64,000 nucleotides of DNA from Eledone cirrhosa (lineage: Eukaryota), in contig OZ024756.1 in the NCBI GenBank assembly GCA_964016885.1, forward strand, positions 35,030,001 through 35,094,000. The letters are read 5' to 3'. Made by a program: the position numbers and the translations under genes. Below are positions 4,066 through 56,266 of the stretch, in pieces. How positions within the stretch are numbered: position 1 is the stretch's first letter; the number at the start of each line of letters is the position of its first letter. Under the pieces are notes generated by a model, which worked only from the letters and a program-made list of their open reading frames with translations, had not been told where the DNA came from and did not search any database.

Positions 4066-4673
4066 CAGTAGATGAGTAACACTAATACTTAATATAATGA
4101 CAACCTTGCATATTAAACCTGCCATCTTAAAGCATGACATATGGGATGGTCTATATCCTATATAAAGACAAGTTTGACACCTTACACAAATGTACGGGTT
4201 TTTTTAAAATGTAATTTTCATTGTCTTCTGAGCAAATCGAATCCATAGTCGAGCTGCATGTAAACGAACAGAGTTGGTCGTTTGCGAAACGCGAGTTATG
4301 CGTGATTATGAATAAAATTATGTAGAATTGAAATTTCGATATATATATATATATATAGTTCGGACCTAACTGTCGAAACAGCCGGAGCTCTGCCGTCGGG
4401 GTCCTGACTCTTTTCCTATTACCCACTCTACTACCCTAAGTATCGAGAACTCTGGTGCGTTATGGTCCACCTGATATCTTACCACACCTTCTTTGTTATT
4501 TATAAATATATATATATATATCCGTATGTGGAGTACTCAATAGCGAAGTAGAATTTTTATATTTATTTATATATTAAGGCTAAATGGTGAGTCTTGTTAC
4601 TCTGGAGTTTCGCCTGTTTATCACAGGGTCGAAATTCCGGAGTAACAAGACTCATTTTTTAGACTTAATATAA

Positions 4674-4749
<76 letters not shown>

Positions 4750-4919
4750 CGAAGGAATTGTGGTAAGGTACCAGATGGACCATAACGCACCAGAGTACTC
4801 AATACTTAGTGTAGTAGAGTCGGAAATAGGAAAAAGTATGACCCCGACGGCAGAGCTCAAGCCGTTTCGACAGCTATTTCTGTACAGAAATAGCCGTCAT
4901 ACTTTTTCCTATATATATA

Positions 4920-5230
4920 TATATATAAGAATTAAAATACTAGAGTGTGTTGGAGTTAAACACCCTCTTCATATTATAGAAATATAGAAATGACAGTAAA
5001 GGTATAGCTCAATGTAATTAAACAGAGCCGAAGAATTAAGAAAATAAACCAAAGAAGCCTTCAATACATCAAAAGTCTTTATAATAAAGACTTTTGATGT
5101 ATTGAAGGCTTCTTTGGTTTATTTTCTTAATTCTTCGGCTCTGTTTAATTACATTGAGCTATACCTTTACTGTCATTTCTATAATATGAAGAGGGTGTTT
5201 AACTCCAACACACTCTAGTATTTTAATTCT

Positions 5231-5240
<10 letters not shown>
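4920..5240. repeat. Long near-perfect palindrome (~155-bp arms) flanked by (TA)n
   Basis: ...AGCCTTCAATACATCAAAAGTCTTT|ataat|AAAGACTTTTGATGTATTGAAGGCT...; the inner ~30 nt of the arm match the sequence 3' of the hammerhead at 21141-21175. Confidence 0.9.
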
Positions 5241-5314
<74 letters not shown>

Positions 5315-6884
5315 GGAATGAATGTTATGTATGAAGAGTGATAGAGATTAGTATGTGAGAACAGAAGAATGAAGAGTATCAATGAATAAACCGCAATAAA
5401 CAAACAGGAGAGAAGAAGGCACAGTTGAAGGCCGTACGTACATAACTTGTAACTTACTACGTAGTGAGGTTATGAATGAATTAATAAAGTTTGAGGTGAT
5501 AACACGCCACCACACCAGCACACACACACACCACCTAACTACGGGTGCTAATTGCTTATCTTAACACACACAGTCTATGTACTCATTCTGAAAACTGTAC
5601 TGTTCTGTGTCAGAGAGATATGGCTATGTAATGGTGGTGGTGAGGCAAATAATTATGATGTATGTGTCAGCATGGAGGAACTTGTTCAATTTACACTGAA
5701 CAAAAGATCCAGTCTCAGAGGATTTTTTTGCTAAGAAATATTTTTGGCCCAAAATACTAAACTATCCTTGAGTTCTTGTGAGGAATATGGGTGATAAATA
5801 GTAGAACCCTGCCTCCTCACCTCTGCTTCCCGGTGTGTCTCTATCATTAAACCACCTCCACTGACCTAATCTACATACCGTTACCCCACCTCTACATCTT
5901 AGGGGTGTATGGGAGTGAAGGGGGTGCTGGAAGAATATTGTGGACAAACCCCTGTTGTGTATAATGTGTGTGTGTCTGTCTGTATGTGTCTGTGTCTGTC
6001 TGTATGTATGTATCTGTCTGTCTGTCTGTCTGTGTGTGTCTGTATGTATGTGTGTGTCTGTGTGTCTGTCTGTATGTGTGTCTGTTTGTATGTGTGTCTC
6101 TGTGTGTGTAGAATTGAAACTGGAAAGTAGTCATGTCTTATACAGCACCCAGGTAGAAAGGAAGAGCTGTTCCCCACATACATCATCATCATCGTCATCG
6201 TTTAACGTCTATCTTCCACGCTAGCCATGTATACATTTTTTTTTCTGTGTCAATGCATAGGGAGATACAGAGTGGGTATAGAGATAGGTAAAGTCCTGAC
6301 CATGGAGCCAAGTGGTTTCAGCTTGTACCCTTAAGAAGGCTTGCTGAACACGCAAGCCGAAACTGCTTGGTGCCATGGTCAGGACTTTACCTCCAAGCAT
6401 GAAAAACTAATCAATGCATGCATGGAAAATTGAAGTTAAACAGTGATGATAGTGATGATGCCCTTGCAGTTTCTACCTACCAAATTCCAATGACACGGCA
6501 TTGGTCAATCGGCAGCTATAGAAATCACTTGCCTAAGGTACCACACAGCAGGATTGAACCCGGCATCACATGGTTATGATCCTTAACCACCCAGTCATCT
6601 TTTGCGAAAGTCTTTAACTATTTTATAACAGGAAATGTGTGTTTGAGCTCTGTTGAAAACACTCACTTTGTCATGGGATCAAATTCGCCCCCATTACCCT
6701 TTAGATACACCCTACATATCTCTACATTATTGAAAGGGTTAACAGGAAATGTGCATGTGTGTAAACCCTCAGACATGTGACTGTTGGTTCAGTTGACTGA
6801 TGGCCCCCACTTAGAAAACAATCCCACATCTCTACAGGATTGTCTCTTCTGCTTACTGTTGGCAAACCATCCTAAAATTGTGTG

Positions 6885-6938
<54 letters not shown>

Positions 6939-7194
6939 ACAGGATGTCACACTCATACATATACACACACACACTCACACTCACATGCACATCCACATTC
7001 TCTCTCTCTCTCTTTCACACAGAGAGGGGTGGGTGGGCTGTCACCCTATTTTACTCTGGTGTAAAATGTTAAGATGGTGGCAGTGGTAGTGGTGGTGGTA
7101 ATGACAATAAAGTTAAGAGAAGGGAGGGGGCGAGAATTTAAGCAAAAACAAAAAACCTCCACATAATTGTTGCTGATGTAATGACAGAACCTCA

Positions 7195-7757
7195 AGTGGT
7201 GGTGGTGGTGACAGTAGAGGTGGCTGTGGTGATGGTAGTGGTTGTGGTGGTAGTGGTGGTGGTGGTAGTGGTGGTGGTGGTAGTGGTGGTGGTGGTAGTT
7301 ATGGCTGTGGTGATGGTGGTGGTGGTGACAGTAGAGTGGTTGTGGTGATGGTGGTGGTTGTGGTGATGGTGGTGGTGGTGGTTGTGGTGGTAGTGGTGGT
7401 AGTTATGGCTGAGGTGGTGATGGTGGTGAAAGTGGTGTTGATGGTGACGGTGGTGGTGGTGGTGGTTGTGGTGTTTATGGTGGTTGAGGTGATGGTGGTG
7501 GTGGTGGTTGTGGTGATGGTGAGGTTGTAGTAATGGTGGCGGTCGTTGTGTTTGTGGTGACAGTGGTGGTGGTGTTTATGGTGGCTTTTGTGATAGTGGT
7601 GGTTGTGGTGGTTGTAGTGGTGGTGGTGGTGACAGTGGCAGTGATGTTTATGGTGGCTCTGGTGATGGTGGTGGTTGTGGTGTTTGTGATGGTGGTGGTG
7701 GTGGTGGTGGTGGTTGTGGTGATGGTTGTGATGATGGTGATGGTGGTGGTGGTGGAG
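7195..7757. repeat. (GGT)n/(GAT) degenerate trinucleotide tract
   Basis: Direct inspection; gives poly-Val/His/Thr pseudo-ORFs. Confidence 0.9.
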
Positions 7758-7934
7758 GTAGCGCTGGGAGGAGGCAGCTAGTGGAATCAGGTCAACTTGG
7801 ATTGTTTCTTCAGTGGCATCCACACTCCCCCTCCTCCTCTTTATCATCAGCATCATAAGTGGCAACAGTCATTGCAGAATTTAACATACACACACACACA
7901 CATATATATATACATGTACTTATATATATGCATA

Positions 7935-7970
<36 letters not shown>

Positions 7971-7992
7971 CATAATCTATAATATATATATA

Positions 7993-8194
7993 TAACAAAG
8001 GAAGTGTGGTAAGGAACCAGATGGACCATAACGCACCAGAGTACTCAACACTTAGGGTAGTAGAGTGGGAAATAGGAAAAAGTATGACCCCGACGGCAGA
8101 GCTCAAGCCGTTTCGACGGCTATTTCTGGGCTATGTCCAGAAATAGCCGTCGAAATGGCTTGAGCTCTGCCGTCGGGGTCATACTTTTTCCTAT
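7993..8194. mobile_element. (TA)n-inserted ~200-bp element with a 58-bp-arm hairpin (8072-8194); related copies at 4358-4500 (opposite strand) and 4746-4912
   Basis: Three copies share GGACCATAACGCACCAGAGTACTCAA...GTATGACCCCGACGGCAGAGCTC; carries the GAAA-CGGC..GCCG-TC half of a hammerhead. Confidence 0.7.
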
Positions 8195-21011: not shown

Positions 21012-21061
<50 letters not shown>

Positions 21062-21187
21062 CGGCTTGTATCTGCCAATATTACTTCTTGTTGTTTTAAT
21101 TGCCCTGATGAGTCCTTAATAGGACGAAACATTGTCAGCTAATAAAGACTTTTGATGTATTGAAGGCTTCTTTGTTTTACTCTATTA

Positions 21188-21220
<33 letters not shown>

Positions 21221-34604: not shown

Positions 34605-56266
<21,662 letters not shown>

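Follow-up and report, generated by a model that had tools for sequence, protein, structure and literature searches.

Short palindromes in Eledone cirrhosa as head-to-head ends of hammerhead-bearing Penelope-like elements, with a likely origin in two-strand priming

Introduction

How does a genome acquire short palindromes whose arms are each built on half a hammerhead ribozyme? The question is raised by a stretch of 64,000 nucleotides (nt) from Eledone cirrhosa (assembly GCA_964016885.1, contig OZ024756.1, positions 35,030,001 to 35,094,000), referred to here as the window, in which the arms of four palindromes all hold the GAAA-stem III-UH half of a hammerhead. A preliminary description took these for unrelated hairpins of one anatomy, and proposed that cDNA synthesis folds back at stem II of the ribozyme and primes itself, deleting the catalytic half. 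The palindromes are real, with a GAAA half in each arm, but they are not unrelated: all are head-to-head pairs of the hammerhead-bearing pseudo-long terminal repeat (pLTR) ends of Penelope-like elements (PLEs). Such pairs are likely made, with a probability of roughly 0.7, by priming from two target strands on one RNA, run-off at a predicted capped start and joining of the resulting ends.

Palindromes of the window

With simple repeats removed, the window contains 8 hairpins with arms of at least 25 nt, against 0 in each of 8 dinucleotide shuffles. The four palindromes are long inverted repeats at 4570-4672 (43-nt arms, 86%), 6286-6392 (40-nt arms, 88%), 8072-8194 (58-nt arms, 98%) and 39606-39673 (26-nt arms, 96%), and serve to name families C, D, A and E, respectively. 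Family B is defined by an intact hammerhead at 21099-21143 together with the palindrome at 4926-5232. The half of the hammerhead that the arms do not share is present in long members of the palindrome families. The element ends are listed below, with coordinates that were read off position rulers and may be in error by up to a few bases.

4522..4672, family C palindromic stub; left arm antisense, with tail, running through stem II into the core; right arm from GAAA (4631)
6250..6392, palindromic stub of family D; the left arm carries part of the tail and ends roughly 5 nt 5' of GAAA, and the right arm begins at 6326
7993..8194, palindromic stub of family A, flanked by (TA)n runs
39516..39673, palindromic stub of family E; tailed left arm into the CUGAUGA core; right arm from about 3 nt 5' of GAAA
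4926..5232, family B palindrome, near-perfect; both arms tailed, each beginning some 5 nt to the 3' side of the predicted cleavage site
21060..21189, plus strand, stub of family B in which the type I hammerhead is complete (21099-21143, Rfam Hammerhead_1)

In the family A stub, the tailed left arm extends to 15 nt 5' of GAAA and is followed by 5 nt of templated filler, and the right arm extends to 17 nt 5' of GAAA, 1 nt short of a predicted start in loop II. The family D palindrome had been counted among hairpins with a missing or damaged core; it does hold the GAAA half, but its far, right arm spans a whole type I hammerhead, the core of which is a decayed U3-A8 variant.

The palindromes as ends of Penelope-like elements

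The elements behind the stubs were traced through loci where copies of the repeats flank an open reading frame (ORF). At locus L242, two family A cores stand 3,096 nt apart with a reverse transcriptase (RT) ORF between them, and at L387 a family B ORF of 913 amino acids (aa) lies between direct and inverted B copies; both orientations of B are also found at L386. Direct or inverted pLTR repeats around an ORF are characteristic of PLEs, as is an optional, one-sided tail. The L387 ORF (2665-5403, minus strand) is uninterrupted, which suggests recent activity of family B, and includes a long Asn/Ser/Pro-rich insert between the RT thumb and the linker. QFD, YRDD and YIG motifs are present both in this ORF and in the family A ORF pieces of L242, L243 and L213. 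Searches of Pfam and of PDB sequences with the ORF itself returned nothing relevant; neighbours in the ESM Atlas, at 0.95-0.98, carry HTH_animal, GIY-YIG and RVT_1, and among 17 homologues, GIY-YIG is above the cut-off in one and a weak RVT_1 match is found in one. Families A and B appear to bear the marks of endonuclease-containing (EN+) PLEs, namely an ORF with an RT and, at its C-terminal end, a GIY-YIG domain.

The A and B proteins have DKT, a CxCX5C linker, late CxxC/CxH motifs and RWR in place of RWK, and insertion is in (TA)n. The Hydra clade of C-terminal EN+ PLEs, as described in PMC8557442, has the same RW[RK], DKT, CxCX5C linker and late CxxC and CxH, as well as the same C-terminal GIY-YIG-like region, the (TA)n target and a hammerhead in the pLTR. 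The ORFs behind families A and B thus carry motifs of the Hydra type; family B differs in its 913-aa ORF with a long insert and in an element length of about 5 kb. An initial "Neptune-like" label was dropped in favour of Hydra after comparison with the clade description in PMC8557442. Families C, D and E are provisionally placed with A by layout and by a tail motif common to the four; the ORF links cover A and B only.

Exact motif matches in the genome of 3.0 Gb, which is rich in (TA)n, number 10,438 for family A, 39,239 for E, 494 for B, 71 for C and 287 for D, where C and D are old and hence undercounted by exact motifs. The exact motif taken from the D copy of the window matched nothing but itself, and D was traced by a similarity search and a second motif.

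Hammerhead motifs of the five families

All five families appear to carry a type I hammerhead motif, with a CUGANGA or U3-A8 core, GAAA, UH and stems I to III. Stem I pairs in every family, each time with a different sequence. The expectation that long members would have the 5' catalytic half is borne out: long copies of families B, C and E have the CUGAUGA core, and those of A and D carry the U3-A8 variant described in PMC4209133, seen as UUGANAA in 29 of 30 long A copies. A search for CTGANGA directly before the centre of family A palindromes gave 0 matches because the A core is this variant and lies 50 nt further 5'. At 39606 the cleavage triplet had been read as GUC; it is GUA, after a CAG/CTG stem III, because stem I pairs only in that register. 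The PLE hammerheads of PMC4209133 show the same type I motif, U3-A8 variant and additional base after position 9, as well as a loop III that is short and palindromic, and are likewise found as pairs on opposite strands, 100-700 bp apart.

The Rfam gathering score was not reached by any of 6 family loci tested; the family B hammerhead at 21099-21143 scores 31 bits (E value 0.0011) against a gathering score of 34. Free folding yields stems I and III and part of stem II for family A, and in none of families B to E was the full hammerhead motif recovered. Scores below threshold and incomplete folds are what minimal hammerhead motifs that may act as dimers would be expected to give.

Two further sets of hammerhead loci were noted. 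A sixth abundant family (L092-L120; 1,745 first-look candidates) has an intact-looking CUGAAGA hammerhead and (TA)n ends, and its inverted pairs have their turning point at least about 100 nt 5' of the ribozyme. L125 and L126 contain a tandem array whose unit, about 48 nt long, includes three parts of a hammerhead resembling that of family C: CUGAUGA, stem II and GAAA.

Where the arms stop

Breakpoints were mapped by taking matches to motifs 3' of GAAA and following the reach of each arm 5' of GAAA. The samples comprised 82 arms in 65 insertions of family A, from the first 29 Mb of contig C1; 59 insertions of E, after removal of two segmental duplicates and one satellite locus; 27 insertions of C, after removal of a tandem duplicate and two reference loci; and 39 insertions of B, for which some extra regions were picked as short pairs. 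Loci from searches biased towards the junction of the query were left out of the breakpoint counts, and some further loci entered a pooled exact-match tally only.

Family A arms end at a wall. The furthest reach is 10-20 nt 5' of GAAA in 42 of the 65 insertions; 7 more score 21-22 nt, where the scorer runs on through microhomology, 7 extend beyond 31 nt and 9 stop below 10 nt. Plain, non-inverted copies end at the same wall as inverted ones, and four copies that run into the ORF (L405, L412, L415 and L426) begin at or near it. Genome-wide, an 18-mer from the wall occurs 12,053 times and an 18-mer from 7 nt further 5' occurs 2,978 times. For family E, 28 of 59 insertions end at 17-27 nt, between 8 nt short of the predicted start and 2 nt past it; another 2 fall within the 11 nt that follow, and 22 are long copies. 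For family C, 12 of 27 end at 25-32 nt and none beyond. The predicted start is placed 18 nt 5' of GAAA in A, 25 nt in E and 33 nt in C. In these three families, plain copies as well as inverted ones end on the A of an initiator-like word, with a TATA-like box 30-31 nt upstream, the word at the wall being judged by the initiator consensus. Junction sequences differ from copy to copy, with microhomology or filler. The breakpoints do cluster, as the preliminary description anticipated, but they do so at this TATA/initiator pair, with an extra G, and mostly not at stem II.

The extra G was counted genome-wide in family A copies joined directly to (TA)n, where the base before the wall is G in 82, C in 18, T (templated) in 25 and A in 18; the tally falls to 78 G when tandem copies are collapsed, and copies joined through TA microhomology are uncounted. 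A control position five bases further in has 6 A and 1 G (Fisher p 0.0004 against the wall position), and the background base after TATAT is A in 87% and G in 5.6%. Family A has a fixed 5' end with an untemplated G, which is the mark of cap run-off; at the junctions of full-length L1 copies, an extra G is the sign of an mRNA cap (PMC11702581). The wall is likely a transcription start, and the extra G is likely a copied cap.

The predicted start coincides with the 5' edge of stem I in families C and E. In family A, the start would lie inside loop II, and the 5' strand of stem II would double as the TATA-like box; a promoter and start within the ribozyme, as predicted here for A, are not described in the available text of PMC4209133. 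Since the start would lie in loop II, the family A leader would hold half a ribozyme only and never the catalytic half, so that no fold-back deletion would be involved.

Tails, arm types and two priming events

Exactly one arm is tailed in 40 of 44 inverted insertions of family A, 23 of 26 of E, 10 of 14 of C and 7 of 7 of B. In 41 of 64 informative cases, across the four families, the tail is on the less far-reaching arm (A 18/33, E 13/17, C 6/8, B 4/6). A tail on the near arm alone is impossible if a target-primed cDNA folds back, because the far arm is then made first and the second arm is its copy. The polarity of the tail argues for two priming events. Both arms are of the same variant type in 8 of 8 family E pairs (chance 0.17), and the types match in 33 of 33 pairs from a scan with the A motif, these being mostly of a single type, with six that belong to a related family. 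Matching arm types imply that one template serves both arms.

In the mechanism that we favour, one DNA cut in a (TA)n run would let each target strand prime reverse transcription on the same RNA, in two priming events. Both cDNAs would run off the predicted capped start, and their ends would be joined with small overlaps or filler, presumably by host end repair. The ends of the two arms would correspond to two internal RT start sites. In keeping with this, the PAc PLE protein cuts both target strands in vitro and extends both; it begins reverse transcription at a pair of internal sites, which bound the tail, and its template is uncut RNA (PMC11167929).

Several points weigh against this mechanism or limit its reach. 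The breakpoint samples are first matches on contigs C1-C4 rather than random draws. Run-off at a cap explains A, C and E but not B, which has no wall at the hammerhead, its 22 head-to-head pairs spanning 178-5,879 nt with short arms that scatter; D is too decayed to map. Fifteen of the 27 C insertions stop more than 8 nt short of the predicted start, many of them in loop II, where a second C cluster lies 9-13 nt 5' of GAAA. By raw count, TATWWAW stands at -33 to -28 in 5 of 6 of the distinct long contexts of A, 8 of 10 of E and 12 of 25 of C, but TATA-like words are common in AT-rich DNA. Among 100 of 121 family E matches, the base before the wall is G in 64, C (templated) in 22 and A in 14, a count that is partly confounded, given that a join through a stem I repeat also puts G there. 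The start site is a prediction placed from genomic sequence, and the further-reaching arm could be misjudged where a palindrome centre has since suffered deletions.

Alternative explanations

In the alternative that survives best, a single cDNA runs off the capped start, folds back on microhomology near its 3' end and copies itself, and the trimmed hairpin is integrated by the endonuclease. The wall would be the same, self-priming would take the place of two target primers, and either arm might keep the tail. This account explains the extra G, the wall and the match in arm type equally well, and it also fits the overlaps of 1-7 nt at many junctions; self-priming has been proposed for PLEs (PMC3846280), and the tail has been ascribed to resolution by the endonuclease (PMC8557442). 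It is nonetheless an unlikely explanation: given that a target-primed first strand forbids a tail on the second arm only, a hypothetical extrachromosomal step is needed, both arms reach the wall with filler between them at L258 and L272, and both target strands are extended by PAc in vitro (PMC11167929).

The wall might instead be a 3' splice junction, or a site where RT stalls at the edge of folded or protein-bound RNA. An AG stands at the wall in A, C and E, an intron of Penelope in D. virilis ends at the 5' end of helix I (PMC4209133), and in A and E some 60 nt separate the wall from the inner end of the arm. The arms, however, retain the AG, and no constant upstream exon follows the wall, for which reason the splice reading was rejected; a stall would account neither for a G confined to one position nor for the TATA-like word that three families have at -30/-31. 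Taken together, splicing and stalling are very unlikely sources of the wall.

The fold-back at stem II that was first proposed, in which the cDNA reaches that stem, primes itself and loses the catalytic half, is highly improbable as a general cause. Its geometry, with the far arm ending at the 5' strand and the near arm at the 3' strand, was found by an automated rule in 1 of 91 inverted insertions (A 0/44, E 1/26, C 0/14, B 0/7), and the 5' strand of stem II is reached by A arms in only 3 of 44. The wall is common to non-inverted copies, CUGAUGA is often kept in E and C arms, and neither the extra G nor the TATA/initiator pair is predicted by a snap-back. As to the centres of the four palindromes, described as like stem II, that of 4570 fits, 39606 is borderline and the other two do not turn at or near the stem; the 8072 centre consists of two copies of the 3' strand with part of loop II, the real 5' strand being absent. 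The stub at 4522..4672 is the window example whose junction fits stem II, L132 (family C, by eye) and L352 (family E, by the automated rule) fit as well, and the C cluster in loop II is in keeping with a snap-back. A minority of junctions (window 4570, L132 and L352) do use stem II as microhomology.

Least credible of all are self-spreading, non-autonomous palindromes copied from a few palindromic masters, in the manner of miniature inverted-repeat transposable elements (MITEs): 11 of 21 head-to-head A pairs in the match list span 95-98 nt and one junction recurs, but that junction stands in both orientations relative to the tail (L038 against L043 and L045), junction sequence varies copy by copy, arms end at PLE tail sites rather than in terminal inverted repeats, and the constant internal sequence that marks a MITE or DNA transposon was not found, the centres differing in each copy. 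The part of the preliminary description that saw the hairpins as reverse-transcription products of hammerhead-bearing retroelements, not ordinary MITEs, holds good, as they are PLE ends with variable centres.

Relation to known systems

EN+ PLE insertions with an inverted, 5'-truncated pLTR (PMC3846280, PMC8557442 and PMC2377424) have the same head-to-head layout with a tail at one end, and share the palindrome at the junction, TATA- and initiator-like words in the pLTR and AT-rich targets. The published insertions differ from those described here, in which arms of about 60-130 nt are free of an ORF, number in the tens of thousands and have a mapped end with an extra G, and in which the tail is about 70-100 nt rather than 30-40 nt. 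Head-to-head PLE junctions were explained in 2013 by self-priming on an antisense template (PMC3846280). Inverted truncated pLTRs, tails, junction palindromes, the self-priming hypothesis and hammerheads on opposite strands are already in print.

The mechanism proposed here combines two-strand extension with internal RT starts and an uncut template, as with PAc, and an extra G at capped ends, as at L1 junctions; the available text of PMC11167929 and PMC11702581 draws no link from two-strand priming and cap run-off to PLE palindromes. In literature searches, cap run-off from both target strands was not found stated for PLEs, although subscription papers, Repbase entries and supplements may hold it. 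L1 twin priming inverts two different parts of the RNA; in the palindromes, by comparison, both arms copy the same part.

The origin of the inverted pLTRs and the role of their hammerheads are treated as open questions in the accessible parts of PMC3846280, PMC8557442 and PMC11167929. The tens of thousands of stubs constitute records, at the level of single bases, of the likely RNA start and RT start. They favour two-ended priming on the sense strand over antisense self-priming, and they fit a main template of uncut RNA. The stubs also make up a large genomic source of short, near-perfect hairpins, and potential double-stranded RNA and hyper-editing are unusually abundant in octopus genomes (PMC5625713).

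Locus L295, like the window palindrome at 4926-5232, begins just 3' of the predicted family B cleavage site. A few such copies may record RNA cut by the ribozyme, in numbers too small to say.

A wider reading, speculative and doubtful as it stands, would have PLEs write their inverted ends by two-ended target-primed reverse transcription, the stubs being failed, "strong-stop" products and the hammerhead a device for pairing ends. The family A promoter would be built into the ribozyme, such that the capped leader holds the GAAA half only and could not cut itself. The 5' half in the downstream pLTR could complete the leader and clasp both ends of the RNA, and the clasp would guide the RT as it jumps from cap to 3' pLTR. 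On this view the fold of the hammerhead would serve strand transfer, by pairing RNA ends, no less than cleavage.

Further features of the window and of family A

Two other family A features lie near the palindromes already listed.

4747..4910, another palindromic stub of family A, its right arm internally deleted
4360..4499, plus strand, diverged family A-like single stub with the GAAA half and tail

At L249, L259 and L312, short family A copies have a 7-nt direct repeat flanking GAAA-stem III, and this repeat gives rise to recurrent deletions that mimic truncation near the cleavage site.

Two further family E arms are found at 36590-37140 of the window (36642, plus strand, and 37135, minus strand), arranged tail to tail, with an inverted piece of tail at 36593. 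The family E stub at 39516..39673 is adjoined by a TA-flanked inverted pair at 39675-40044, with 151-nt arms at 96%, within which a CTGATGA core is found on the minus strand at 39829.

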